This document shows positions 1-13,609 of a stretch of DNA of 13,609 bases, piece by piece. The notes under the pieces were generated by a model. The model was not told the DNA's origin. It searched no databases and worked only from the letters and a program-made list of their open reading frames with translations. The stretch's first letter is position 1. The number at the start of each line of letters is the position of its first letter. Both the position numbers and the translations under genes were made by a program. This DNA comes from an uncultured Candidatus Bathyarchaeia archaeon (GTDB lineage Archaea > Thermoproteota > Bathyarchaeia > Bathyarchaeales > Bathycorpusculaceae): NCBI GenBank assembly GCA_964450845.1, contig CAYVGZ010000041.1, forward strand, positions 1 to 13,609, given 5' to 3'.

Positions 1-1
1 A

Positions 2-808
2 CCACGCAAAAGATTTGACGCCATAGACATAGATCCCTTCGGCTCCCCCGTGCCCTACCTAGATTCGGCATTGCGAGCCTTACGCAACGGCGGGCTTCTC
101 GCTTTAACAGCTACGGACATGGCGCCACTATGCGGAGTTCATCCAAAAGCGTGCATACGCAGATACGGCGGAAAACCTCTGCGCACGGAATACTGCCACG
201 AACTCGCTGTTAGACTTCTGGCTGGTTGCTTAGCTGCAACTGCAGCAAAACACGACATAGGCATAAGCGTAGTCTTCAGCCACAGCACAAACCATTATAT
301 TAGAATTTACGCAACCGCAAAATATGGCGCAAAAAAGGCTGACGAAAGCATCAAGAACATTGGATACATACTGCACTGTTTCAAATGTTTCCACAGGGAA
401 ACCACAAAAGAACATTTCTTTGTTGAACATGCTGGGAAATGCGGTGAATGTGGCTCAAAACTGAGTGTCGCCGGACCATTGTGGCTTGCAAAAATATTTG
501 ACAGAAAATTCTGTAAATTAATGGAAGAAGAGCTTAGAAAAAGGAATTTTCGATTTAAGGCACGGATAGAAAAGATTTTGGCTTTGATAACGGGTGAGAC
601 TGAAGCTCCCATTACATATTATGTTGTTGACAAGTTATGTGATGCGCTGAGTTTGCCCGTTCCACCAGTTAAGAAGATTATCAATGCTTTAGAGAAGGAG
701 GGGTTCTCAGCGTTTCTGACTCATTTTAACCCTAAAGGAGTGAAGTCGAACGTGCCAGCAGCAAAGATAAAGAAAATTTTGCGTGAAATGTTGAGCACTA
801 ACTGGTAA
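2..808 (+). CDS. trm1: tRNA (guanine26-N2)-dimethyltransferase Trm1, 5'-truncated by the window edge
   Basis: The frame is open from base 2 (PRKRFDAIDIDPFGSPVPYLDSA...), which includes the Trm1 D-x-DPFGSP motif. Also LTATD-APLCG, E-A-R-L, a CFKC/CGEC zinc finger and GPLW. The ORF-track start at 50 is an internal GTG. Confidence 0.93.
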   Translation, partial: PRKRFDAIDIDPFGSPVPYLDSALRALRNGGLLALTATDMAPLCGVHPKACIRRYGGKPLRTEYCHELAVRLLAGCLAATAAKHDIGISVVFSHSTNHYIRIYATAKYGAKKADESIKNIGYILHCFKCFHRETTKEHFFVEHAGKCGECGSKLSVAGPLWLAKIFDRKFCKLMEEELRKRNFRFKARIEKILALITGETEAPITYYVVDKLCDALSLPVPPVKKIINALEKEGFSAFLTHFNPKGVKSNVPAAKIKKILREMLSTNW

Positions 809-810
809 GT

Positions 811-818
811 TTTATATA
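811..818 (+). promoter_or_regulatory. Putative archaeal TATA box for the 846..1415 gene
   Basis: TTTATATA lies 28 nt upstream of the GTG at 846, which fits a leaderless or short-leader transcript. Confidence 0.5.
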
Positions 819-845
819 ATCATAGGTTCTAAAAGAGACAATCTG

Positions 846-1415
846 GTGAAGAGATTGAATAAGAAAATATTCGCTTTAGTCATAATGGCTGTTTCAGCGC
901 TTCTACTGATACCCTTAATTGACACAGCGAATCCACAACCAGAAGTGATGGCTTGGACGGATAAAAAAGAGTACGGTCCAGGCGAATCTGGAACCCTAAC
1001 CATCGTATTCTACAATGATCGTTCCTATGCAGTTTCGATTGAAAAGATTTTCGTGGTTTTCAATAATTGGTGGGTTTACAGGAATGGTGAATGGGAAGGA
1101 AATCAAACATTGACAGTTAACGAAGCTGTGGCAGTTAACGAAACATATGAAACGTCAGTAACGTTTACTGTGCCAACTGATGGAAGAGCAGACTCCACAA
1201 CCGTTTCCATAACCATTCAAACAGCAGAAGCTGGAAACATTTACGCCTATCCTAGCGTCGCTGTTGCTATAACGCCTAGGTACATGGACCAAATCGTGAC
1301 GCTTTTCACAATTCAGATAGTGCTTATCATCGTCTGCACTATTATAATAGCTGCGACAATATTCCTTTCAGCGCGTAGACCGCAAGTAACGTGGAAAGCA
1401 GAAGAGAAAACTTAA
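846..1415 (+). CDS. Exported, C-terminally membrane-anchored beta-rich protein of unknown function
   Basis: Basic/hydrophobic N-terminal signal (MKRLNKKIFALVIMAVSALLLIPL), a beta-rich middle with a TDKxxYxPGE motif seen in Ig-like/MG2-like domains, and a C-terminal hydrophobic helix (IVTLFTIQIVLIIVCTIIIAATIFL) followed by RR. Confidence 0.75.
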   Translation: MKRLNKKIFALVIMAVSALLLIPLIDTANPQPEVMAWTDKKEYGPGESGTLTIVFYNDRSYAVSIEKIFVVFNNWWVYRNGEWEGNQTLTVNEAVAVNETYETSVTFTVPTDGRADSTTVSITIQTAEAGNIYAYPSVAVAITPRYMDQIVTLFTIQIVLIIVCTIIIAATIFLSARRPQVTWKAEEKT

Positions 1416-1499
1416 TAAAACCAAAACTTCTCCCCCTTTATTTTCCATCTTGTTTAAGTAATAGAATCCATATTTGCTAACAGTTATGAATCAAATATT

Positions 1500-1506
1500 G
1501 GAGGTG
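1500..1506 (+). promoter_or_regulatory. Shine-Dalgarno-like site for metG
   Basis: GGAGGTG immediately upstream of the GTG start at 1509. Confidence 0.55.
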
Positions 1507-1508
1507 CC

Positions 1509-3206
1509 GTGAAACTCGGAAAAGTCTTAGTCACGTGTGCTTGGCCATACGTGAACTATATGCCACATCTGGGCACGTTGGTGCAGGTTCTGTCCGCAGA
1601 TGTCGTAGCCAGATATTATCGATTGAAAGGCGAAGACGTAGTTATGGTAAGCGGTTCAGACGAGCATGGAACTCCAATAGAAGTTGAAGCTGTGAAATTA
1701 GGGATTTCGCCAAAACAATTAACTGACAAAATTCATGCAAAAGTAGTCGAATTGTTCAAAAAATGGGGGTTCTCATTCGACAACTACACTCGAACAGAAA
1801 ACCCAGTCCATAAAGAGTTTGTGCAAGCCCATCATAGTAAAATCTACAACAACGGATACGTCTTCGCTCAAGAAACAGAGATGCTCTACTGCGAAAAATG
1901 CAGTCGTTTTCTGCCAGATAGATTCGTGGAGGGAAAATGCCCATACTGTGGATACGAAACTGCCCGTGGAGACCAATGCGACGCTTGTGGTAGACTGTTA
2001 GAACCGACGTTCCTAATAGAGCCTTACTGCACAATATGCAAAAGCAAACCAATCATAAAAAAGACCAAACAATGGTATTTTGACTTACCAAAATTCTCCG
2101 AAAAACTCGCCGATTTTATTAACAACAACAAAGAGTTGCCAGCTAATGCCAGAAACTTTAGCTTAAATTTGATAAAAGAAGGATTGAAGCCTAGGGCTAT
2201 GACAAGAGATGTGGACTGGGGAATTCCAGCACCTTTTCCAGGAGCAGAGGGCAAAACATTTTACGTTTGGTTTGAGAATGTCTTGGGTTACGTTTCAGCA
2301 ACAATTGAATATTTTAGAAACAAGGAAGAACCAGAGAAATGGAAGGAGTACTGGTTTAACAAAGAAGCCAAAACCCTATATTTCGTTGGAAAAGACAACA
2401 TTCCATTTCATGTGATAATTTTTCCGGCTCTTCTATTAGCTTCTGGTGAAGACTACAATTTGCCATGGAACGTGCCAGCAACAGAGTTCCTTCAATTTAA
2501 AGGAGAACGCGCCTCAAAAAGTAGAAGAATAGGCATATGGATGGATGAAGCATTAGAACTTTTCCCAGCGGACTACTGGCGTTTCTTCTTGATGGCAACT
2601 AGACCTGAAACGAAAGACGCGAACTTTTCATGGGAAATTTTCATTGAAAAGATTAATTCAGACTTGAATGACACGTTTGGCAACTTCATTCACAGAACGT
2701 TAGCCTTCATGAATACACAATTTAACAGTGAAGTTCCACAACCAGAAGCTTTAGACGAAGACGATAAGCGAATTTTGGAAACTCTAAAAGAGAAGGTTGA
2801 AACTGTTGCAAAAGAAATCGAAGACTGCGGATTGCAATCCGCCGCAAACACTATGATAAGCATAAGCCGTATGGGAAACCAGTACTTGAATGAGAAGGAA
2901 CCTTGGAACTTAATCAAGAAGGATAGAGGCAAAGCAGCAAGTGTCATTTATGTGGCTGCACAAATTGTTAAAGCCCTTGCAGTAGTTTCAGCCCCGTTAA
3001 TTCCATTTGCTGCAGAAGAACTTTGGAGAACCCTCAACTTGCCTGGAAGCGTTCACGAGCAGGGATGGGATGAAGCCCTAACGCCTCTGCCGCCTAGGCA
3101 CAAAATGGCTAAGGCAAAGCCTTTATTCCATAAAATAGATGCAACCGAAAAAGAACTGGACGAAAAATTAGAGAAGATTGGAGAACGTTTGTCAAACGCT
3201 TCTTAA
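1509..3206 (+). CDS. metG: Methionyl-tRNA synthetase, short form without the C-terminal tRNA-binding/dimerisation domain
   Basis: AWPY..PHLGT (HIGH-like), SGSDEHGTPI, four CxxC zinc knuckles, RAMTRDVDWGIP, YVWF, GKDNIPFH, RASKS (KMSKS-like), GNFIHR and YLNEKEPW anticodon-domain motifs; 565 aa. Confidence 0.95.
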   Translation: MKLGKVLVTCAWPYVNYMPHLGTLVQVLSADVVARYYRLKGEDVVMVSGSDEHGTPIEVEAVKLGISPKQLTDKIHAKVVELFKKWGFSFDNYTRTENPVHKEFVQAHHSKIYNNGYVFAQETEMLYCEKCSRFLPDRFVEGKCPYCGYETARGDQCDACGRLLEPTFLIEPYCTICKSKPIIKKTKQWYFDLPKFSEKLADFINNNKELPANARNFSLNLIKEGLKPRAMTRDVDWGIPAPFPGAEGKTFYVWFENVLGYVSATIEYFRNKEEPEKWKEYWFNKEAKTLYFVGKDNIPFHVIIFPALLLASGEDYNLPWNVPATEFLQFKGERASKSRRIGIWMDEALELFPADYWRFFLMATRPETKDANFSWEIFIEKINSDLNDTFGNFIHRTLAFMNTQFNSEVPQPEALDEDDKRILETLKEKVETVAKEIEDCGLQSAANTMISISRMGNQYLNEKEPWNLIKKDRGKAASVIYVAAQIVKALAVVSAPLIPFAAEELWRTLNLPGSVHEQGWDEALTPLPPRHKMAKAKPLFHKIDATEKELDEKLEKIGERLSNAS

Positions 3207-3230
3207 CAGTTTAAAAAGGACTGTGGTTTT

Positions 3231-3896
3231 TTGCAACTGAAAATCGACTTACATGTCCATACTCACTATTCCTATGACTCTCTAATCACGCCAGAAGAAC
3301 TAGTCTATTATGCAAGGAAACATGGATTGGACGCTGTCGCCATAACAGACCACGACAGAATCGACGGTGCATTAAAGATTGCTAAAGAAATAGGCTTCCC
3401 AATTATTCCAGGAATAGAGGTTTCAAGCCTGGGCGGTCATGTCGTAGGGCTTAATCTCCAAGAACCCATCCCAAAAAAACTGAGCGTCTCCGAAACAGTG
3501 GATAAAATACATGAAAAAGGAGGGTTGGCAGTGGCTTGTCATCCAGTAGCTTTTATGAAGGGAAGTGTAGGAAAAAACGTAACTGCAAGGTTCGACGCAG
3601 TGGAAGTGATAAATGCTTCAGCCATTCCGTTTAGTTATTCTGTAAAGTACGGCGAAAAAATTGCTTCTCGTCTTCGAATCGCTCGAGTTGCTGGCAGCGA
3701 CGCACATTATGGTCCAGAAATAGGTTGTGCGTACACTCTTGTGGACGCTGAATTGGAAGTGGAAGAGATAATAAAAGCGTTAAGCAAAGGGTTATGCCAA
3801 CCATTTGGTAAAGCAATACCCCTAAATATAAGGCTGAAAAGAGAATTCTTAGTTCTTAAAAGAAAATTTAGTTTAAGAGATCAGAAAAGAAGATAA
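3231..3896 (+). CDS. PHP-family metal-dependent phosphoesterase
   Basis: DLHVHT..S.D, AITDHD, GIE..S..GH, HP, EV.N and GSDAH motifs. TTG start 24 nt after the metG stop, so probably co-transcribed. Confidence 0.88.
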   Translation: MQLKIDLHVHTHYSYDSLITPEELVYYARKHGLDAVAITDHDRIDGALKIAKEIGFPIIPGIEVSSLGGHVVGLNLQEPIPKKLSVSETVDKIHEKGGLAVACHPVAFMKGSVGKNVTARFDAVEVINASAIPFSYSVKYGEKIASRLRIARVAGSDAHYGPEIGCAYTLVDAELEVEEIIKALSKGLCQPFGKAIPLNIRLKREFLVLKRKFSLRDQKRR

Positions 3897-3898
3897 TG

Positions 3899-5008
3899 TT
3901 AGGGGAAATGTTCCAGTTGGTAAAGGTTTAGCTTCATGTCTAGCTGTTTCTCTGGTTCTGCGTATGGTTCTAGGTTGAAGAGTTGCGGTGCAATTGTTCC
4001 AAACCCGCTTAGAATATGCGGAGAATTTACGCCTGTCATAACAAGCGTGACTTTTAATTTGCCATTTTGTTCAGGGTTGACTCTTGCACCCCAGATGACT
4101 AGGGCATCGGTGTCCATCATCTCCGTCACGATTTCTCCTACGCGGTTTGCCTCTTCAATTGTCATCTGGTTGTCGCCTGTAACGTGAATTAACGCTCCAG
4201 TTGCGCCAGCATAATCAACATTCAACAACGGGCTTCTTAGGGCGTTTCGCACGGCTTCTTCGGCTCTGTTGGGAGCATCCGACTCGCCTACTCCGACAAC
4301 GGCTACTCCACCTCTTCTAACGATGGTTCTGAAGTCTGCGAAGTCAAGGTTGATGAGGCTTGGAGCTGAAATTGTTTCCACTATGCCTTTAATCATGTTT
4401 GCCAAAACTTGGTCTGCGACCCTGAAAGCCTCGTTTATAGGCAATTGCGGAACGAGTTGCATCAGCTTGTTGTTATCTATCACTACAACGGTGTCGCATT
4501 GTCTACGCATTTCAGTCAACGCTGTGGCAGCATATTCGATTCGACCTTTTTCAATGCGAAAAGGCGTAGTTACAACACCTACGGTTATTGCTCCTTTTTG
4601 CCTCGCAATTTCTGCAACAATTGGTGCTGCTCCTGTTCCTGTTCCACCGCCCAATCCAGCAGTTATGAAAACTATGTCCGCATTAAGAAGCAAATCGTCA
4701 ATCCGCTTTCTGGATTCCTCGATTGCAGCTTTGCCAAGCTTTGGATCGCCGCCAACCCCGAGTCCTTTAGTGAGTTTTTCGCCTATCAGCATTTTTTGAT
4801 TAGCCCTTGAAGCGCCTAAATGAATTGCATCCGTGTTTATGGCTATACATTCTGCCCCAGCTACGCTCATCTCCATTAACCTAGTTACAGTATTGTTGCC
4901 CGCCCCTCCAACACCAATCACAACTATGCGACAATGACTAGAAGGAAGGATTCCCTCAGCCAACGCATCATGCCATGCATATTTCAATGCATGTTCTGTA
5001 GTGGACAT
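3899..5008 (-). CDS. ftsZ: Cell division protein FtsZ (cdrS-linked)
   Basis: GVGGAGNN, AINTD, GGGTGTG tubulin signature, PFRIE, intact T7 loop NLDFAD and IWGA. ATG at 5008 is preferred over TTG at 5017 because it lies 1 nt after the cdrS stop codon. Confidence 0.96.
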   Translation of the reverse strand: MSTTEHALKYAWHDALAEGILPSSHCRIVVIGVGGAGNNTVTRLMEMSVAGAECIAINTDAIHLGASRANQKMLIGEKLTKGLGVGGDPKLGKAAIEESRKRIDDLLLNADIVFITAGLGGGTGTGAAPIVAEIARQKGAITVGVVTTPFRIEKGRIEYAATALTEMRRQCDTVVVIDNNKLMQLVPQLPINEAFRVADQVLANMIKGIVETISAPSLINLDFADFRTIVRRGGVAVVGVGESDAPNRAEEAVRNALRSPLLNVDYAGATGALIHVTGDNQMTIEEANRVGEIVTEMMDTDALVIWGARVNPEQNGKLKVTLVMTGVNSPHILSGFGTIAPQLFNLEPYAEPEKQLDMKLNLYQLEHFP

Positions 5009-5009
5009 T

Positions 5010-5165
5010 TTAGCCAACCTTTTTCCTCTCCCTGACCTCTTCGATTATCAAATCACGGATAGCTACCCGAATTGCTTCAGCCCTATTTGGATAAAACCTC
5101 TCATTTACAAGCTGGTCTAACGCTTTGAGGTAGGGTTCAGGAAGATAAAGTGTTATCAGCTTCAT
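5010..5165 (-). CDS. cdrS: Ribbon-helix-helix (CopG/MetJ-type) regulator, CdrS-like; 51 aa, not in the ORF track
   Basis: Manual translation gives MKLITLYLPEPYLKALDQLVNERFYPNRAEAIRVAIRDLIIEEVRERKKVG*. It has the RHH pattern (alternating beta strand, YPNRAEAIRxAIRDL), GGAGG upstream, and its stop is 1 nt before the ftsZ ATG. Confidence 0.88.
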   Translation of the reverse strand: MKLITLYLPEPYLKALDQLVNERFYPNRAEAIRVAIRDLIIEEVRERKKVG

Positions 5166-5373
5166 TCAACTTCTCCCTCCATGCAAGCAAAAGAATCCCA
5201 TGTCAAGCGTTATACTCGTATATGTTAAGAAACAAATATGTTTTAAACATGTTCGTTCTTGCCTATTTAAGCACAGTGCAGAAACCGTTTCAAGTTTGTG
5301 TAAATTTTGGCTATCGACAACCTTTATGTTTTTATTCCTTGTTAAAGCATTTAATGTATTGCGATGGAGAACT

Positions 5374-6663
5374 ATGCGCATTTTCATCAAGAGTTTCGGC
5401 TGCTCCACAAACTTCGCTGACGGCGAGGTTTTGGCTGGATGCTTAGCAGAAGCTGGGTATAAACTGTCAGACTCTGCCACCAACGCAGACGTAATCATTT
5501 ACAATACTTGTGCCGTTAAGGGACCAACGGAAAATCGCGTGATCGAAATTTTAAAGAGGACTCCAGCAAACAAAAAAGTGATTATTGCAGGATGCCTCCC
5601 CCTCATCAACTTCGAAAGATTATGCAAGGAAGTGCATTTTGACGGAGTTGTTGGACCGGCAGCTGGTGACAGAATTGTTGAGGTTGTGAAACGTGTTTTA
5701 AATGGTGAAAGGGTTATCACCCTAAAAGAAGCCGTGAATGCGAAGCCCAACTTGAATCTGCCTAGGCTACGATCGAATCCTGCGATAAGCATTATTCCCG
5801 TAAACTATGGTTGTTTGGGAAAATGTGCCTACTGCTGTGTGGTTTTTGCTAGGGGGCACCTAAGAAGCTACGCAGTTCAGGAAATTGTTGAAAGAGTGAA
5901 AAAAGACTTGGATACGGGCGCTCGGGAGTTTTGGGTTACTTCGCAAGACACAGCCTGTTTTGGAAGAGACAGTGGCACGAACCTTGCAGAACTGCTTAAT
6001 GCCTTATGCGATGTTAAAGGAGATTTTAGGGTTCGCGTTGGTATGATGACCCCCAACATGGCATTGGATATTCTAGACGACTTAATTCAAGCCTTCAAAG
6101 ACGAAAAAATCTTCAAATTTATCCACTTGCCAGTGCAAAGTGGCGACAACCAAACTCTGGAGCGCATGCGAAGATTTTATTCTGTGAAAGATTTCAAAAG
6201 AATCGCAAATAGCCTTAGGACAAGTTTTCCAGAGTTGACTCTAGCCACAGACGTTATTTGCGGTTTTCCAAGCGAAAGCGAAGAAGCTTTTGAAAGAACT
6301 CTGCAGCTAATTGGGGAAGTTAAGCCCGACATTGTGAATGTTTCAAAATTTTTTGCAAGACCGAGAACTGCAGCAGCTGAAATGCAGAAGGATTTTGTGC
6401 CTTTCCAAGAAATTAAGCGTAGAAGTAGCGTTGCAGCTAAGTTGGCTGGTGAAGTGGCTTTTGAAAGGAATCAGCGTTGGGTTGGGTGGACAGGCGAAAT
6501 TTTTGTTGATGAGGTTGGCAAGATTTCTGGTTCTTGGGTTGGACGCAATTTTGCTTACAAGCCAGTCACGATAAAGGATACAGCAGATTTGCTTGGCAAG
6601 ACTTTGCGTGTCAAAGTTGTTAAGAGCTTTCCAACTTTTCTGAAAGGAGAAGTCGCTGAATAA
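5374..6663 (+). CDS. mtaB: Radical SAM tRNA methylthiotransferase, archaeal/eukaryotic MtaB (CDKAL1-like) type; about 429 aa
   Basis: N-terminal UPF0004 cysteines (FGC..N..D.E, NTCAV, AGC), radical SAM CLGKCAYC, SQDT, HLPVQSG, TDVICGFP.E and a C-terminal TRAM-like domain. Start set at ATG 5374 (GGAGA upstream), not 5200. Confidence 0.88.
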   Translation: MRIFIKSFGCSTNFADGEVLAGCLAEAGYKLSDSATNADVIIYNTCAVKGPTENRVIEILKRTPANKKVIIAGCLPLINFERLCKEVHFDGVVGPAAGDRIVEVVKRVLNGERVITLKEAVNAKPNLNLPRLRSNPAISIIPVNYGCLGKCAYCCVVFARGHLRSYAVQEIVERVKKDLDTGAREFWVTSQDTACFGRDSGTNLAELLNALCDVKGDFRVRVGMMTPNMALDILDDLIQAFKDEKIFKFIHLPVQSGDNQTLERMRRFYSVKDFKRIANSLRTSFPELTLATDVICGFPSESEEAFERTLQLIGEVKPDIVNVSKFFARPRTAAAEMQKDFVPFQEIKRRSSVAAKLAGEVAFERNQRWVGWTGEIFVDEVGKISGSWVGRNFAYKPVTIKDTADLLGKTLRVKVVKSFPTFLKGEVAE

Positions 6664-6710
6664 ATTATTTATGTAGATGCGACACTATCTTGTTGTTAGG
6701 AGTGGTGTAA

Positions 6711-6971
6711 TTGAGTGAAGAGAACGTTGTTGAGATTGGGCGTATAACCCACTTCTTCACAAAAATCAGCGTAGCCGTTATCGAGCTTACAGCGCCTTTG
6801 GCTGTCGGCGACACAATAGTCGTTAAGGGACCAACCACAGACTTTGAACAAAATGTGGAATCTATGCAGATTGAGCATAATAATGTTCAGAGGGCTGAGG
6901 CTGGACAAAGCATAGGCTTAAGGGTGGCTCAACGCGTAAGAGAAAACGACACAGTGTACAAAAAACTATAG
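6711..6971 (+). CDS. Small stand-alone beta-barrel protein (resembles the U32-peptidase C-terminal / EF-Tu domain II-like family)
   Basis: IGRITHFFTKISVAVIEL...L.VGD.I...G..TDFEQ.VESMQIEH..V..A..GQ.IGL.V..RVR..D.VYK pattern. AGGAGTG upstream of a TTG start. Confidence 0.8.
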   Translation: MSEENVVEIGRITHFFTKISVAVIELTAPLAVGDTIVVKGPTTDFEQNVESMQIEHNNVQRAEAGQSIGLRVAQRVRENDTVYKKL

Positions 6972-6975
6972 CAGC

Positions 6976-6996
6976 TTCTCTTTTTTTCCATTCTTT
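6976..6996 (+). terminator. Oligo-T, archaeal-type terminator candidate
   Basis: T-rich tract including T7 (6981-6987) just after the stop at 6971, at a convergent junction. Confidence 0.4.
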
Positions 6997-7347
6997 ATCT
7001 AATTGGTTCTTCCCAATCCGTTTAGCATCCGTCTTGCGGGATCAAAATTATAGTTGTTTCGTTTGGTAATGGCATTTCAGGGTTTTCTTTTACGTTCAGA
7101 AATGGTTTCGACTTCATGGATGCTTGAACTGCAACCTGCTTGTAAAATCTATCTTCAATAGGATGATAGACCATTTGAAGTAGGCTTTCAAATCCTTTTA
7201 CTGGAAAATTTCCGCATTCTTTATTTCTTCATTCGCAGCTTTAATAGCGTCCAAGATCGAACTGTTATCCTCCAACAGAAGCTGTATACCAATAGGAAAT
7301 ATTTTGTTTATCTCGGTTTGGCGGACAATTAACATAACCTTTTTCAT
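6995..7347 (-). pseudogene. Frameshifted ORF for a putative ubiquitin-like (SAMP/MoaD beta-grasp) protein ending ...LIPQDGC; fourth gene of the arsR arm; not in the ORF track
   Basis: ATG at 7347 overlaps the upstream TGA (ATGA). Frame 0 reads MKKVMLIVRQTEINKIFPIGIQLLLEDNSSILDAIKAANEEIK and stops at 7198-7200. The -1 frame, open from 7228, continues ECGNFPVKGFESLLQMVYHPIEDRFYKQVAVQASMKSKPFLNVKENPEMPLPNETTIILIPQDGC* (TAA 7022-7024), then TDWEEPIR* (TAA 6995-6997). Confidence 0.7.
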
Positions 7348-7601
7348 AGTCCAGCTTCTCTTAAAGCTTCCTTTAATGTTTCTTCGCTTGGGCAGACTCC
7401 AACTATTCGAATATCCTCATCAATTACAATTGCTGGACTTGCCTTTATTCCATATTCCTCAAGCTTTTTGCAAACCCCACAATAGATTTCCACTTCAATC
7501 TTATCTCCATACTCCTTCTTGATCTTCTCAACCAGCTTTAGCAATAGCCTTCCACCAGAACAAGACGGTTCTGAAGTAAAAACCTCCATTCTTATTGGCA
7601 C
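7344..7601 (-). CDS. Small thioredoxin-fold protein with a CSGG N-terminal motif (no resolving Cys), internal CGVC and C-terminal GVCP; 85 aa
   Basis: GTG at 7601, with GGAGG upstream and just past the previous TGA, gives MPIRMEVFTSEPSCSGG..., which is collinear with the adjacent paralogue. cis-Pro-like motif ASP. Confidence 0.8.
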   Translation of the reverse strand: MPIRMEVFTSEPSCSGGRLLLKLVEKIKKEYGDKIEVEIYCGVCKKLEEYGIKASPAIVIDEDIRIVGVCPSEETLKEALREAGL

Positions 7602-7602
7602 A

Positions 7603-7863
7603 TCAAACCTCCATCTCCATAAGAGCAGCTTCAATCGTCTTCATGCTTGGGCAAATGCCCATGATTTTTATCTTTCCCTCGTTGAAAACCATGGCTGGCA
7701 CTACAGTCAAGCCATAGCTGTTAAACTGTTCACAAGGTCCAATATGCTTTATTACGTCAACTCTCTCGCCATACTTCTCCTTAAGCAAGTACGCAATTTC
7801 CAACAGCTTCAAGCATCCCGCACACGGCGGTTCAGCCGTAAAAACCTCAACCTTAACAACCAT
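7603..7863 (-). CDS. Small thioredoxin-fold protein (CAGC) with extra Cys44 and Cys71
   Basis: EVFTAEPPCAGC, YGLTVVPAMVFN (cis-Pro loop) and GICPS; GAGGAG upstream. Confidence 0.85.
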   Translation of the reverse strand: MVVKVEVFTAEPPCAGCLKLLEIAYLLKEKYGERVDVIKHIGPCEQFNSYGLTVVPAMVFNEGKIKIMGICPSMKTIEAALMEMEV

Positions 7864-7876
7864 ATGGCTTTCTCCT

Positions 7877-8200
7877 CTAGATTATCTGCTCTATTATCCG
7901 ATTTGAAAGAACCTCAGCCAGTTGAGGAGTAATCGAATCAACTACCTGAAATATTCTTGGATCTGTGACTGAATATAATCTTCTGTTTCCATCTTTCCTG
8001 TCCTTTACAAGTCCGCAGTCTTTGAGAATTTTTAGGTGACGTGAAACCAATGGCTGAATCAGACTAACGTGTGGAACTATCTCACACACGCATCTTTCTC
8101 CTTTGCGTAGAAATTCAACTATTTCAAGTCTCGCTGTATCAGAAAGGGCGTTGAAAATTTTCGCCTTCAACCTATTCTGGTTGTTTCTTTTCGGATGCAT
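7877..8200 (-). CDS. arsR: ArsR/SmtB-family transcriptional repressor with an alpha3 CxC metalloid site
   Basis: IFNALSD..RL.I...L, ERCVCEI (compare ArsR ELCVCDL), QPLVSRHLKILKDCGLV, G.RRLYS. Confidence 0.9.
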   Translation of the reverse strand: MHPKRNNQNRLKAKIFNALSDTARLEIVEFLRKGERCVCEIVPHVSLIQPLVSRHLKILKDCGLVKDRKDGNRRLYSVTDPRIFQVVDSITPQLAEVLSNRIIEQII

Positions 8201-8216
8201 GCTTCAGAGTAGGTCG

Positions 8217-8240
8217 ATAACAATATTTAAATATTGCTAT
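8217..8240. promoter_or_regulatory. Palindromic operator containing a bidirectional TATA box
   Basis: ATAACAATATTT/AAATATTGCTAT: a 12-0-12 inverted repeat with 11 of 12 positions paired and a perfect 16-bp core (8221-8236). TTTAAATA reads on both strands (+ 8226-8233, - 8231-8224), between divergent arsR and thioredoxin genes. Confidence 0.75.
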
Positions 8241-8270
8241 ACGCTTCTCATTCCCAAAAAGGCGAAGAAT

Positions 8271-8540
8271 ATGAAAGAAGTGAAAGTGGAAGTAATTGTA
8301 CCCGAACCAGCATGTGCGCGTTGTCAAACAGCCAAAAAAGTTGTGGATAAAGCTGCAGAGAAACTTCAGACTGAATTGAACATAAAAATAGAGAAAGTAA
8401 ATATCATTTCAAAAGAAATCGTGAAAAAATATGGAGTTTTGATTTCTCCAGCCATAGCAATCAACGGCGTAGTTAAAGTAATGGGAAGGATGCCCAGTGA
8501 AGATGAAATTGCAAGATTGATGAAAGACGCTGCCAGGTAG
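8271..8540 (+). CDS. Small thioredoxin-fold (redox-active disulfide) protein, CARC; 89 aa
   Basis: MKEVKVEVIVPEPACARC...KYGVLISPAIAING...GRMPSEDEI. True start is ATG 8271; the ORF-track extension from 8103 overlaps arsR and the promoter. Confidence 0.87.
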   Translation: MKEVKVEVIVPEPACARCQTAKKVVDKAAEKLQTELNIKIEKVNIISKEIVKKYGVLISPAIAINGVVKVMGRMPSEDEIARLMKDAAR

Positions 8541-8553
8541 GACTCGGAAAAGA

Positions 8554-9597
8554 ATGAATCGAAAAGTTATCAGAAAAATCCGAATAATTCTCTTGTTGCT
8601 TTTCGTTTTTGCAGTTGTAGGCTACCTAATCTTCACGCGAATTAAAGCTTATTCGATAGGTCCCACATTGCCGCCAGAATACTTCTCGCAGCTTAACTGG
8701 TACGAAATTCCATTCCATTATTTATGGGATTATTTCTCTCACGGGTGGATTTGCCTTCTTTTCGCGTTTACGGCTGCAGGTCTGGTATACGAGTTCATTC
8801 CAAAAGAGATGGTGACAAATTATATGAGTAGCAGTAAAATCGCAGGCTACGCAATAGGCGCTGGGCTTGCGCCATTCTTTACAGTGTGCTCATGCACTAT
8901 GGTTCCCCTTTTCGCAGGAATACTCTACACAGGTGCGGGAATAGGTCCAGCGATTACATTTCTTCTTATGGCTCCAGCCGCAAACATACTTACAGTGCTA
9001 ATTACTGGAGAGTTTATTTCGTGGGAAATTGCTGGAGTACGCATATTAGTCTCTTTCATGACGGCGGTGCTTGCTGGCGTAATAATTTCAAAAATTCCTT
9101 TGGGAAAAGCAATCGAGAAAGAACATCAAATTAGTCAAAATTCCGGCATAGTTAAGCAGACTGTTGAAATTGTTAAGCCTCCGCTTGATGAGAGGTTGAT
9201 TTCTGCATTGAAGTTTGGAGGATTTTTAGGGAAGCAAATTTTGCCCTTTTTCATTTTGGGACTTGTGGTTGTGAGTTACGTTACGGCTTACACTCCTACG
9301 AATATTGTGGAAGGATATTTGACTGGAGTAAGAGGCGTGCTAGTGGCATCTGTTATAGGAGGGCCACTTTATACTCCGACGCTTGTTGAAATAGCCTTAG
9401 GTAGAGAACTCCTCGCAAAAGGCATGTCAACGGCTGCGCTTCTTTCGTGGCTTATGGGACAACCCTATGACATACCAAACATGATAGCGGTTTCAAGAAT
9501 TGTAAAGTGGAAGGTCGTTTTAACATATGCATTTATTGCATGGGCGTGCAGCGTGACTTTCGGACTGCTATATGGGTTAATAACAAGCTCTTTATAG
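8554..9597 (+). CDS. ArsP/DUF318-family permease
   Basis: Multiple TM segments, PFFTVCSCTMVP (CSC motif), GIGPAITFLLMAPAAN and a second-half G.PLY motif. Located between the thioredoxin gene and arsC. Confidence 0.85.
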   Translation: MNRKVIRKIRIILLLLFVFAVVGYLIFTRIKAYSIGPTLPPEYFSQLNWYEIPFHYLWDYFSHGWICLLFAFTAAGLVYEFIPKEMVTNYMSSSKIAGYAIGAGLAPFFTVCSCTMVPLFAGILYTGAGIGPAITFLLMAPAANILTVLITGEFISWEIAGVRILVSFMTAVLAGVIISKIPLGKAIEKEHQISQNSGIVKQTVEIVKPPLDERLISALKFGGFLGKQILPFFILGLVVVSYVTAYTPTNIVEGYLTGVRGVLVASVIGGPLYTPTLVEIALGRELLAKGMSTAALLSWLMGQPYDIPNMIAVSRIVKWKVVLTYAFIAWACSVTFGLLYGLITSSL

Positions 9598-9619
9598 AAA
9601 CTCAGCCTAAGATTGACAT

Positions 9620-10018
9620 ATGAAGAAAATTCTTTTTGTTTGTGTCGAAAATGCTGGTAGAAGTCAGATGGCTGAGGGTTTTGCGAAATATTATGGAAAA
9701 GGCAAGGTTGAAGCCTTGAGTGCTGGTACAATGCCTTCAACTGAGGTTAATCCAATCGTCGTTCAAGTGATGCGAGAGAAGGGAATTGACGTATCAAAAA
9801 ATAAGCCGAAACTTGTTAACACGCAAATGGTTCAGGAGGCAGATGTGATAATAGTGATGGGGTGTGATCCTCAGGGATTCTGCCCTGCGTCTTTTCTCAG
9901 CAAAGTGGTAGACTGGAAGCTTGAAGATCCGAAAGGAAAGCCGATAGAAAAAGTTAGAGAGATAAGAGATGAAATCGAGAGAAGAGCTAAGAAGCTAGTT
10001 GAAGAGATTATTTCATGA
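9620..10018 (+). CDS. arsC: Arsenate reductase ArsC, LMW-PTPase fold, thioredoxin-coupled type
   Basis: P-loop CVENAGRSQMAEG (Cx5R), SAGT, a distal Cys pair in MGCDPQGFCP, DW.LEDP and VREIRDEI. Confidence 0.88.
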   Translation: MKKILFVCVENAGRSQMAEGFAKYYGKGKVEALSAGTMPSTEVNPIVVQVMREKGIDVSKNKPKLVNTQMVQEADVIIVMGCDPQGFCPASFLSKVVDWKLEDPKGKPIEKVREIRDEIERRAKKLVEEIIS

Positions 10019-10346
10019 ATCTTAACATGTAATCGTTCACAGTCTGCAGAAATGCTTCTTCCAATTCTATGCCATAATGTTCAGCCAAAACAAAGATTAT
10101 GTAAAGCAAATCTGAAAGCTCTGTGGCTAACATCTCTTTACTTTTGATTTTTTCAGGAGGCTTAAAGCCTTCCAATCCTTTAACTACAGCGGCTACTTCG
10201 CCAGCCTCTTCAAGTAAATCAGTAACCATGACAAAGGGGGTCCAGCCTTGTCCTCTCGATGGGTCGAGCTTGTCATTGATCTTCCTGAAGTTTTTCCAAC
10301 AGAGATGCTGAGCATCACGTAGAGTAACAGACACACGATTCACCAC
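10008..10346 (-). CDS. MazG-like all-alpha nucleotide pyrophosphohydrolase
   Basis: LLEEAGEVA...ELSDLLY acidic metal-binding pattern and LA..YGIELEEAF. Its 3' end overlaps that of arsC by 11 bp. Confidence 0.8.
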   Translation of the reverse strand: MVNRVSVTLRDAQHLCWKNFRKINDKLDPSRGQGWTPFVMVTDLLEEAGEVAAVVKGLEGFKPPEKIKSKEMLATELSDLLYIIFVLAEHYGIELEEAFLQTVNDYMLRFMK

Positions 10347-10466
10347 TATCGAATTTACAGTGTTAAGTTAATAAACGATTTCGGGTTCTCGATTTTTATG
10401 GGTTATTCTACATCAAACCATTAATGGAGACGTTTCCTGCAATTCCTCATTTTTTCAGTGTGCATG

Positions 10467-11435
10467 TCATTTGAGAGTGGTTTGTTCATTCGGCCTCAAC
10501 CATTTGCTTTTCCATAACCACAACAGCGGCAAGATTATGGACAGTATTATTGCAGCGTAGATTATTATGTAATCTGTGTTTCCGAATTGTGATATTCCAA
10601 AGAAAGTGGCAACTGTATTTGGGAATGAGGTGATGGTGGTTATTATTGTTAAATAAAATATGACGATTGTTAAGGCTTTTATTGCTGAGTTAATCTTGTT
10701 CGATATTGCTGAGAGATATACACTGATCGCGTCTGTCAATATTTCTCTGTACGACTCTACTATGTCTATCTGCCTCGTTAGGAATTCATGTGCAGTATCA
10801 AATAGGCTTCGAGCCTTTGCCGTTATACATGTTGCTTGGGTTTTCCTTAGGTTGAAGATGAGCCCTCTTTCGTACCACAAGATTTTGTTGAAGCTCACCA
10901 TTCTGGACTTCAATCTAAACAGTCTTCTAATAGTATCTATGTCTGCTTTCTTCATCACATCTTCTTCAAGCGTCGCGGTAAGTTCTTCCATTTTCTGAAG
11001 ATGAGAGAAACTGCTGTCAATAATCTCATCTAAGATGTAATATGCAACAATCGATGGGGGGTCATTTCTTGTTTTGAGCATTCTTGCTTTTGCCAAATCA
11101 ATGATTTTCCGATATTCTTTCTTTTCGACAGTTATTAGGAAGTCCTTTGAAAATATTATAGTTATAGGATAGATTTTTTTGGAAGAGATGATTTCGGAAA
11201 TGACGACAAAGTTGATCACTCCAAAGTCTTGTTCCCATCTCAAACTGATACTTTGACTGATCTCTTTAATCTCCAGCAGGTCAACTGGTATTTCGGTCTT
11301 CTCTGAAACAGCAACCAATTCCTCCTTCGTTGGTTCCTCCAGTTCCAGCCAAACATTCGTCAATCTCAGATTTCTGAGATCTTCTGGCTTGAGTTCCTTT
11401 TTAGAATCGCTGACTAGATCAATAAAGTTGATCAT
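10467..11435 (-). CDS. corA: CorA/ZntB-like divalent cation channel with a non-canonical signature (GIS for GMN)
   Basis: W..L..PT.EEL, long stalk helices (ILDEIID...LE..., LK..MV...K), SNKIN..IK.LT and two C-terminal TM segments flanking P.T...FFGIS. Confidence 0.8.
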   Translation of the reverse strand: MINFIDLVSDSKKELKPEDLRNLRLTNVWLELEEPTKEELVAVSEKTEIPVDLLEIKEISQSISLRWEQDFGVINFVVISEIISSKKIYPITIIFSKDFLITVEKKEYRKIIDLAKARMLKTRNDPPSIVAYYILDEIIDSSFSHLQKMEELTATLEEDVMKKADIDTIRRLFRLKSRMVSFNKILWYERGLIFNLRKTQATCITAKARSLFDTAHEFLTRQIDIVESYREILTDAISVYLSAISNKINSAIKALTIVIFYLTIITTITSFPNTVATFFGISQFGNTDYIIIYAAIILSIILPLLWLWKSKWLRPNEQTTLK

Positions 11436-11760
11436 GCTGCATACACTTCCATTCTTCGATTTGCGTCCTCTGCCGATAAAATCCTTTCCTTTTTGAAAAT
11501 GCGATTGGCAATCACAAGTTTTACTGCGAACGTGGTAGCATTCGTGGGAAGGATAAGTGTTATAAGATTAGAATGGAAGGCATTTTTGGTGTCTTTTTCG
11601 TTGTGGTGTCTTTAGGGCAGTTAATTTGCTGAATCAAGCCTTGCGGTGTTCTAGGTATTTCGAAGTTAGCGAATAGGGTAGACGAATTGAAAAAAACTTG
11701 CAGTTTGAGGGGAAATAGACGAGATTGAGAAGTGGTTCTTTAAGCTACATTTTTACAATT

Positions 11761-11779
11761 TCTTTGAAAATTTCAAAGA
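11761..11779. repeat. Perfect 9-1-9 inverted repeat in the corA / membrane-protein divergent intergenic region
   Basis: TCTTTGAAA-A-TTTCAAAGA. Confidence 0.6.
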
Positions 11780-11899
11780 GTGTCTTGCGAACGCGCGTAA
11801 ATGATTTGAGAAGGATTGCGAGCGCGCTTGTTGTTGGGCTAAACGCTATGCAGACAAAACCGTTAATATTTTAGCCACTAAAGTTTACAGTGAAGACTT

Positions 11900-12316
11900 G
11901 TGGACTCGATACTACGGAACATAAGGGCGAGAAGTTTTGAAAGTTTAAGTAGTTTTTTTCTTGGAGTTTTTGTAGGGTTTCTCATAATTGCTTTCGGTGG
12001 TGGAGTTCTTCCGATAATTGCCTATCTTATTGGAGGCTTTTTTGCAGGGTTAATCGCGGGAAGTGGAATGGGCAAAGGAGCGTTGGCTGGTTTTCTGGCT
12101 GGAGCGTTTGGCGCAGTAATTGCCACAGTGCTTCTGATAGGTGGGCTGATGTCGCTGAGCGGAATATTGGGCGAGTTTAGAGAGGTTTTCATGAGCGAAG
12201 GGCTAGGGCTTGCCATAAGAATCGTGGCAATTTTACTGAACATTTTTGGCATAGTTGTTGCCGCTGCCGGAGGCTTGGTTGGAGGTCTAGTTCGAGCGAT
12301 AATAGAAACGTCTTAG
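11900..12316 (+). CDS. Small Gly-rich multi-pass membrane protein (resembles DUF5518-type archaeal proteins)
   Basis: About four hydrophobic segments with GxxxG repeats (GGFFAGLIAG, GALAGFLAG, GGLVGG). TTAATATT lies about 30 nt upstream of the GTG. Confidence 0.7.
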   Translation: MDSILRNIRARSFESLSSFFLGVFVGFLIIAFGGGVLPIIAYLIGGFFAGLIAGSGMGKGALAGFLAGAFGAVIATVLLIGGLMSLSGILGEFREVFMSEGLGLAIRIVAILLNIFGIVVAAAGGLVGGLVRAIIETS

Positions 12317-12490
12317 GTTAGCTTGTCGTTACGTGTCAGGTCTTCAGTGGAGGAGACATTAGCCAAAGTTAACGCCAAAGTGGTTGAGTTTTGGTTCATT
12401 GACCGAGAACTAATAAGACAAAATCTAACATAGAGTCAATTACGACTTCAAGGTATTTATAGAGGGGTATAACTTCCCACAGAGACCATC

Positions 12491-12505
12491 AGAACAAACA
12501 AAAAA
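12491..12505 (-). terminator. Oligo-T terminator candidate for the radical SAM gene
   Basis: The minus strand reads TTTTTTGTTTGTTCT immediately after the TGA. Confidence 0.45.
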
Positions 12506-13609
12506 TCACGGAATTATTTCGCATCCGTTGTACTTCATAAATTCAAAATCTTCCTGGCTTATCCTTCCATTTTCCATAAGCCTTCTGATTCTTGGAACCT
12601 CTTCGGCTACTGCATCTACAAGATTCCGCACAGTACCACAGACCAAACCATATTCTTCCTTGCTCCACCGTTTGGTGATGTTGGCGTAAAGGCATCGACC
12701 ACCGCAAATGTTGAAAATATCGCATTTTGTGCATGGTTCGCCGACGAAAACCTTCTTCAGTTTCAATGGGTTTGCATTGCTGATGTGTCCTAAATAATAG
12801 TCTTTCATTCCCCACATTGCTGGACACGGAACAATATAACCATCTGTTTGTATGGCATAGTTTATCCATCCTCCTCCACAACGCAAAAGACTCTTCTCTT
12901 CGCCAGATAGAAGCGATTGAGCAATTCCAAGGAATGGATAAAGCCGCAAAACAACTCCATTCTTCTCCATTTGATCAACCCAAAACTTGACAAGCTTTCG
13001 TATTCCAAGATTGTAGCTTTCTTCACTCCACCTTTTGAAGTCTCTCCTTGCAAAATCGTTTCCCCAAAAACCAGCATTCAGTTGCCAATGCACAGAAGAA
13101 AACGGAAATATCTCGTTATCCAAAAACCATCTAATCTGCTTGTAAATATCCGTTTGTTCCATAACCGTCATTCTAGCAATTAACTCGCCTCCAAAACCGT
13201 TTCGTCTAATCAACTTTAAATTGTTAACTACTTTTCTGAAAGTGCCTTTTCCCCTATAATAATCAGTTAAGGCTTCATCACCGTCTATGGAAACGAGAAT
13301 TGTGTGAAGACGGTTAACATATTCTGGCTCTAATCGATGCAATAGTAATCCGTTCGTTTGTATCATGAAATGTTTAGCTTTCACATTGTCCATGATTTGT
13401 TTGATTTCGCTAATGCAGAGCAATGGTTCTCCACCGTAGAAGGTTAAAACACATTCATCGTCTCGCCTACAAAACTTGTCAAGCAGGTTAACTTCATAAT
13501 TTATTTTTTTAGGCAAACGATAGTTAACATCAAAATTTAGGAAACTGTCATCCATGTCCTCTAGTGCTTCGCCGAAACAATATTTGCATTCTAAATTGCA
13601 CTCGCCTGT
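12506..13609 (-). CDS. Radical SAM/SPASM-domain protein (resembles the archaeal AF0577/TIGR04084 type), 5'-truncated
   Basis: The frame is open to the window edge: TGECNLECKYCFGE contains the CxxxCxxC motif missed by the ORF track. Also FYGGEPLL, QTNG, SIDG, a Cys-rich SPASM region (CGGG, PCP, CTKC...CGGRC) and a C-terminal CEIIP. Confidence 0.88.
   Translation of the reverse strand, partial: TGECNLECKYCFGEALEDMDDSFLNFDVNYRLPKKINYEVNLLDKFCRRDDECVLTFYGGEPLLCISEIKQIMDNVKAKHFMIQTNGLLLHRLEPEYVNRLHTILVSIDGDEALTDYYRGKGTFRKVVNNLKLIRRNGFGGELIARMTVMEQTDIYKQIRWFLDNEIFPFSSVHWQLNAGFWGNDFARRDFKRWSEESYNLGIRKLVKFWVDQMEKNGVVLRLYPFLGIAQSLLSGEEKSLLRCGGGWINYAIQTDGYIVPCPAMWGMKDYYLGHISNANPLKLKKVFVGEPCTKCDIFNICGGRCLYANITKRWSKEEYGLVCGTVRNLVDAVAEEVPRIRRLMENGRISQEDFEFMKYNGCEIIP

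Follow-up and report, generated by a model that had tools for sequence, protein, structure and literature searches.

To our knowledge, ubiquitin-like modifiers and sulfur carriers all act through the carboxylate of a terminal glycine, which is activated by an E1 enzyme. In some relatives of these proteins the glycine is followed by other residues. QbsE, which ends in GG-CF, and CxnE, which ends in GG and a decapeptide, are precursor carriers cut by JAMM proteases (PMC5925218). In mycobacterial cysteine synthesis, the CysO-Cys adduct is a transient species made by CysM and cleaved by Mec+ (PMC3227635). We analysed a stretch of 13,609 nucleotides from an uncultured Candidatus Bathyarchaeia archaeon (contig CAYVGZ010000041.1, positions 1 to 13,609; hereafter the window). 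An apparently empty part of it had been proposed to hide a ubiquitin-like gene ending in Gly-Cys and coupled to an ArsR operon. The gene is there, but it is not merely hidden: a 4-nt deletion and a nonsense codon have broken it. The features of the gene and of its neighbours are as follows (positions in the window).

6711 to 6971, plus strand: small EF-Tu-domain-2-like gene, convergent to the broken gene
6995 to 7021, minus strand: in-frame remains of the native tail (TDWEEPIR and stop)
7022 to 7024, minus strand: premature TAA directly past Gly-Cys; CAA (Gln) or a Thr, Ser or Ile codon in relatives (in the run X4 relative, 7024 A>G gives CAA)
7025 to 7216, minus strand: C-terminal 64 codons, in the second frame (CGNFPVKGF...IILIPQDGC)
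Between 7217 and 7218: 4-nt deletion, placed by alignment to the same-genus genome G002 and by the run X4 relative, which has TTTC (plus strand) behind 7217
7198 to 7218, minus strand: out-of-frame read-on past the deletion (NAEIFQ, then TAA at 7200-7198), from the alignment to G002
7219 to 7347, minus strand: N-terminal 43 codons (MKKVMLIVRQ...EEIK), with the ATGA overlap at the start
7344 to 7601, minus strand: Thioredoxin_3 paralogue 5' of the broken gene, with C-S-G-G in place of CxxC
7603 to 7863, minus strand: Thioredoxin_3 paralogue with a C-A-G-C motif
7877 to 8200, minus strand: ArsR-family regulator (HTH_5), the first gene of the four-gene string

The minus-strand ORFs at 7198-7347 (49 aa) and 7022-7228 are the two halves of one gene. 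The start codon of the first (ATG, 7347-7345) and the stop codon of the Thioredoxin_3 gene upstream (TGA, 7346-7344) overlap, as had been noticed, in an ATGA. Joining the halves across one break gives about 108 aa, in agreement with the original prediction, but, compared with intact relatives, the break removes 4 nt and is not a single-base shift. Reading through the TAA adds TDWEEPIR and brings the protein to about 117 aa. The codons at 7025-7216 hold the most conserved block of the family (SLLQMVYHP..RFYKQVA) and its near-invariant Cys. The broken gene is the 3' end of the arsR-Trx-Trx string, beyond which lie a divergent Trx_3 gene, an ArsP permease and an ArsC of the LMW-phosphatase type; the other genes of the window are archaeal housekeeping genes (Trm1, MetRS, PHP, FtsZ, MiaB-like). 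The three Thioredoxin_3 paralogues of the window (7344-7863 and 8271-8540) differ in their Cys pattern (C-A-G-C; C-S-G-G plus C-G-V-C; and that of the third). The ars cluster has ArsP and ArsC and lacks ACR3, which is found at the same place in relatives.

A six-frame search of 40 related genomes matched both halves to one continuous ORF in G002, with E 4e-36 and 1e-19, and retrieved single-frame homologues in several genomes of the same family. Searching proteins gave 94 homologues, nearly all of 116-120 aa, all 'hypothetical' and none with a Pfam domain; where the source is named, they come from Bathyarchaeota/Bathyarchaeia MAGs or from one Nitrososphaerota MAG. Because both halves match one ORF of G002 and there are 94 further homologues, the match of one gene in two frames is, by these searches, far beyond chance. 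Homologues spanning both frames, as anticipated in the original prediction, are thus at hand.

In the DNA alignment the window is 4 nt short (AAAG----AATGCGG versus AAAGAGAAAATGCGG) and has TAA where relatives have CAA. Such lesions could be artefacts of sequencing or assembly that mask an intact gene, as the genome is a MAG of 120 contigs with about 10x depth. However, an independently built Logan contig of the probable source run, a hot-spring metagenome, has 0 differences and 0 gaps over 6600-7395, and the TAA is confirmed by a contig of run X3, another sample of that study. Moreover, 4-nt deletions in non-homopolymer sequence are not typical Illumina errors. We therefore consider an artefact highly improbable. 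A relative of ~90% identity from a sediment metagenome (run X4) has the CAA and, behind 7217, the four missing nucleotides (plus-strand TTTC). Given the Logan contigs, the second sample and this relative, both lesions are real at the consensus level and close intact alleles exist.

The dN/dS of the broken gene against G002 is 0.22, which indicates selection on the gene until recently. It is 0.12-0.15 for arsR and the two Trx genes upstream, and the difference points to a recent inactivation. The copy in the window, called from consensus contigs of about 10x depth in one study, would hence be a recently inactivated pseudogene, through the 4-nt deletion and the CAA>TAA change, and most likely makes no functional protein. 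Of the two lesions only the deletion appears clearly disruptive; the stop past Gly-Cys recreates the native end of Asgard type and need not be deleterious on its own. The probable source sample (run X1) also contains a second relative, ~87% identical over 7123-7218, whose contig crosses the deletion site and reads there like an intact ...AADEEII... helix. It seems that one hot spring is home to both broken and intact lineages.

Disruption is frequent in this family. In Bathyarchaeia, 14 of 34 copies (about 40%, counting the window and G023) are disrupted, by single-nucleotide deletions around codon 20, by stops that replace Gln76 (two lineages), by internal deletions or by multiple frameshifts. 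The family was found in only 9 of 41 relatives. In a sample of about 400 genomes of the phylum we found it in three, all in the order of the window, and did not find it in the others searched. Scattered presence and frequent lesions form, across these genomes, the pattern of a dispensable accessory gene. This pattern bears on the idea that the gene is functional in the window, where programmed -1 frameshifting at A_AAG (7222-7219) would yield a product ending in Gly-Cys. Slippage by -1 at ATA-AAG would bring back ...EEIK-ECGNFP..., one residue short of the family, the Gly-Cys end is native in Asgard relatives and the dN/dS is still 0.22. Yet the decay across copies argues against programmed frameshifting: the other disrupted copies have unrelated lesions elsewhere, as in decay and not as in a conserved recoding signal. 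Relatives have no shift at the A_AAG site, and the zero frame is without a canonical X_XXY_YYZ heptamer. Recoding is in our view very unlikely, and we retain the pseudogene as the reading of this copy.

Some of the lesions recur. A heavily degraded copy (L067) has a stop at the same post-Cys codon as the window (7022-7024). Gln76, within VA[IV]-Q-AY, has become a stop in L045 and L058, which belong to separate lineages. All of the recurrent stops (L045, L058, L067 and the window) are C>T-type changes at CAA or CAG. In G002 (L002, G002:C102) the core is intact and the tail has TGG>TAG (GGCQTD-stop-EEPIR-stop). The window and G002 are both of the gene-bearing genomes of their genus and have tails cut at different codons, so the tail may be dispensable there.

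We then turn to the fold. AlphaFold2 models of an intact Bathyarchaeia member (pLDDT 90.8) and of an Asgard member (pLDDT 94.8) have the same order of elements: strand, strand, helix, short helix, strands. In the PDB, Foldseek matched nothing at E<=0.001 and came closest with SAMP1 (4e-3), and a profile search of the PDB sequences gave nothing below E 0.2. Foldseek alone being weak, exhaustive alignment by VIA-align was needed to see the match of folds, and the structural ranking is based on it. For the Bathyarchaeia model, SAMP1 came first (Z 9.9, rmsd 2.6 over 86 of 87 residues), followed by CysO (Z 9.5), a MoaD-related protein (Z 8.9), HVO_2177 (Z 8.8), the MoaD of P. furiosus (Z 8.4) and the SAMP1 of M. 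acetivorans (Z 8.3). The Asgard model gave the same list in the same order. The models thus support a beta-grasp fold of the MoaD/SAMP type, as originally proposed, with the four best matches at Z 9.9-8.8. Searching the ESM Atlas placed two unnamed clusters closest (Bathyarchaeota, 101 members; Promethearchaeota, 81 members), ahead of the ThiS/MoaD clusters.

The genome itself encodes three ordinary GG carriers (with ends GGG, SGG and HGG), two ThiF-type E1s and one Prok-JAB; the E1s are unlinked to the gene. With hhalign, the family aligned to these three SAMP/MoaD carriers over 83 columns (E 1.4e-4, probability 53%), in a register that sets P-D-A-G-C against P-x-V-x-G-G. Both this register and the alignment of close homologues place a Cys where the carriers have their terminal Gly, and this part of the original prediction stands. 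Remote homology to ThiS/MoaD is plausible, if not proven. Judged by profiles and alignments, two features that define ThiS/MoaD are missing from the family. The ThiS profile (PF02597) had no match at E<=1 in five intact homologues, nor at E<=0.1 in five distant ones. The free C-terminal Gly-Gly of ThiS/MoaD/SAMP is absent, the family ending in G-C-COOH or in G-C and a tail of 9 to about 30 aa.

When both halves and intact homologues were scanned against Pfam and NCBIfam, nothing rose above sub-threshold noise (for example TGS at E 0.04). The literature search returned nothing relevant on an archaeal beta-grasp protein with a C-terminal cysteine or on a new MoaD-like Asgard family, and neither Pfam, NCBIfam nor the literature searched has a name for the family. 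Hence, this appears to be an undescribed family of about 118 aa, present in Bathyarchaeia and, more distantly, in Asgard archaea. The C-terminus of 31 aligned close homologues reads P-x-[GDN]-G-C-x-T-D-W-E-E-P-x-x. Gly108 and Cys109 are invariant (31/31) and T-D-W-E-E is at least 90% conserved; the second Cys, near position 46, varies and often gives way to F, A, V, H or L. Since the close homologues continue past the Cys with x-T-D-W-E-E-P-x-x, its 'terminal' position in the window is attributed to the nonsense mutation. By this alignment, the Gly-Cys end that had been read as the end of the protein is a product of CAA>TAA, followed by the native 9-aa tail, and is not the native terminus of the lineage. 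Such an end is native, however, in distant Asgard relatives. From 1.84 billion representative proteins, 101 relatives were retrieved with a profile, and about 20 complete distant ones end natively in ...P-D-[AP]-G-C-COOH; where the source is named, these are Helarchaeota and Promethearchaeota (Asgard MAGs). A third class has x-C and then a longer conserved tail, roughly [ST]-[DE]-[WF]-[ED]-[EP]-x-[IL]-x-Y-x-x-F-x-K-A, and includes a genome of the same order (G025).

There are thus three classes of tail: none (Asgard), 9 aa of the form x-TDWEEP-xx (most Bathyarchaeia) and long (up to about 30 aa). In a set of 35 diverse members, no alignment column is fully invariant and the Cys reaches at least 90% conservation, preceded by G, M, N, T, I, V, P or L. 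The long-tail members (P0097, P0099, P0100, P0106, P0127, P0136, P0144, P0145, P0147 and, in G025, L008) have an acidic conserved stretch past the Cys and then a helix-like D/P-Y-x-x-F-x-K-A motif.

The genomic context was read at 32 species-level Bathyarchaeia loci, whose genomes are related, so that the counts overstate independence. The convergent EF-Tu-domain-2-like gene adjoins the family downstream at 22 of the 32, followed by MiaB-like, FtsZ, PHP and MetRS genes. True ars genes (ACR3, Trx_3 paralogues, ArsP, ArsC) adjoin 9 of the 32, plus the window and G023 (about a third). They form three arrangements, where X is the family gene: arsR-Trx-Trx-X, arsR-ACR3-X and X-arsR-ACR3. At other Bathyarchaeia loci the neighbours are an ABC transporter and PadR, a methyltransferase and MazG, or SRP19 and S8e. 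At the five Asgard loci read the gene stands alone, without a common neighbour and without true ars neighbours (0/5); one has a divergent ArsR-type regulator. Because many Bathyarchaeia loci and all the Asgard loci read lack ars neighbours, linkage to ars genes is, on these counts, frequent and lineage-specific and not a trait of the family. The coupling to an ArsR operon is therefore real in the window, but it extends to only about a third of the Bathyarchaeia loci and to no Asgard locus read.

Two neighbours deserve a separate mention. The EF-Tu-domain-2-like gene (6711-6971, plus strand) encodes 86 aa with a sub-threshold match to EF-Tu domain 2 (E 2.4e-4). No other gene adjoins the family as constantly as this one, which is invariably beside a MiaB-like radical-SAM gene. 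In the Asgard loci, the convergent 145-aa and 155-aa neighbours were considered as a conserved partner and rejected, being mutually unrelated.

The linkage raises the question of a dedicated arsenic or antimony chaperone of the ars operon, whose tail Cys would bind As(III) and pass it among ArsC, Trx-like proteins and the exporter. This would explain why the gene of the window is translationally coupled to arsR-Trx-Trx, and why ACR3, Trx_3, ArsP or ArsC flank the gene in three arrangements and on either side, at 9 of 32 loci, the window and G023, although these loci are from related genomes and the counts are not independent. It would not explain the absence of true ars neighbours at about two thirds of the Bathyarchaeia loci and all the Asgard loci read. 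The constant neighbour is a housekeeping block (EF-Tu-D2-like, MiaB-like, FtsZ, PHP, MetRS), beside which the ars genes look like a variable island. In addition, known As(III) sites have two or three thiols. The family has a single invariant Cys (Cys109), that at ~46 being variable, it has no ArsD-like cluster of two or three Cys for As(III), and the intact homologues gave no match to Pfam ArsD. We regard a dedicated chaperone as quite unlikely. A dedicated As(III) role in the ars-linked lineages is possible, and is weakened by the single invariant Cys and the many unlinked loci.

The overall explanation that fits best, which we hold with moderate confidence, is that the window contains a broken copy of a new beta-grasp Cys family in which the thiol of the tail would be the working group. 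The Cys would sit on a flexible C-terminal tail, at the position of the terminal glycine of the carriers, and would hold a persulfide, a mixed disulfide or another thiol-linked cargo. Adenylation of a terminal Gly carboxylate would be less likely than such chemistry. Because the Cys, terminal or internal, is retained, and the preceding Gly is not conserved across the superfamily, the logic of conservation makes a shared tail-thiol chemistry most likely. The thiol arm for As(III), a metal or a persulfide that had been suggested is compatible with the near-invariant Cys; a single invariant Cys would fit a stand-alone As(III) site poorly.

The close Bathyarchaeia homologues have an invariant Gly before the Cys and Gly, Asp or Asn before that, which also fits a G-G|C processing site. 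The protein could then be the precursor of a sulfur carrier or modifier. A JAMM/Mec+-type protease would remove the Cys and what follows it, the exposed Gly would be adenylated by a ThiF-type E1 and thiocarboxylated or conjugated, and the Cys would be the P1' residue. The conserved post-Cys tail could be a recognition peptide for the protease. The [GDN]-G-C with its acidic tail of 9 aa resembles the GG and acidic decapeptide of CxnE and the GG-CF of QbsE (PMC5925218), and Mec+ cuts the CysO-Cys adduct between the C-terminus of CysO and the Cys (PMC3227635). The tail register matches that of GG carriers, and the genome has the two ThiF-type E1s and the Prok-JAB. These points make the precursor a good fit to the close Bathyarchaeia sequences. 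Across the wider family the fit is poorer. Several members have M, N, T, I, V, P or L before the Cys, a poor end for an E1 substrate, and a discarded propeptide would not usually be conserved and helix-like, as the tail of the long-tail class is. In about 40 loci read, we found no E1, MoaE or JAMM gene adjacent to the family. The presence of Prok-JAB does not track the gene either: G008 (95% complete) has an intact copy and no Prok-JAB match, and G021 (100% complete) has a sub-threshold match only. Finally, the genome already has three ordinary carriers ending in GG. We consider a precursor rather unlikely, if clearly more credible than a dedicated arsenic chaperone. A self-activating N-to-S acyl shift at Gly-Cys, of the hedgehog or intein kind, was also considered and rejected as most improbable: there is no HINT-like domain and the Asgard members end at the Cys.

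The tail-thiol reading can be extended, more tentatively, to a new class of ubiquitin-fold carriers in Asgard archaea and Bathyarchaeia. An encoded tail Cys would replace the thiocarboxylate made by an E1 and would carry persulfide sulfur (As(III) or a metal where ars-linked) without activation by ATP, and the tail classes would tune the recognition of partners. This is possible, but on balance doubtful.

The copy in the window is an ordinary pseudogene, and the interest lies in the family, which is found in Bathyarchaeia and in Asgard, the archaea closest to eukaryotes. With the same predicted fold and a conserved terminal or near-terminal Cys, it would be either an E1-independent thiol carrier or a new form of self-marked precursor. 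Either outcome bears on the diversification of ubiquitin-type chemistry. The frequent decay and the repeated linkage to ars genes suggest a role in stress or detoxification that is of use under certain conditions.

Among described systems, the closest in fold are ThiS/MoaD/SAMP/CysO/Urm1 (PF02597). They have in common with the family the beta-grasp topology, the size class and a flexible tail beyond the final strand, in which a Pro stands four or five residues from the end. What sets the family apart is an insertion of about 30 conserved residues (FP....SLLQMVYHP.E.RFY.QV), a Cys at the place of the terminal Gly, past which many members run, and the lack of an adjacent E1, MoaE or JAMM gene. 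BfUbb of Bacteroides fragilis (PDB 8hm1/8hm2) has, according to the entry titles, a ubiquitin fold with a C-terminal Cys for Gly, as in the family. However, it is a eukaryote-like ubiquitin, its structural match to the family is weak (TM 0.33) and its sequence is unrelated. QbsE and CxnE resemble the family in having a beta-grasp fold and, after Gly-Gly, a Cys or a short acidic peptide. Their genes are in biosynthetic clusters beside a JAMM protease, whereas in the family no protease is linked and the Cys, but not the Gly, is conserved across the superfamily. The CysO-cysteine adduct, with its ...Gly-Gly-Cys-COOH end, is chemically like the Asgard members and the shortened copy of the window. 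In the adduct the Cys is added enzymatically, whereas in the family it is encoded by the gene.
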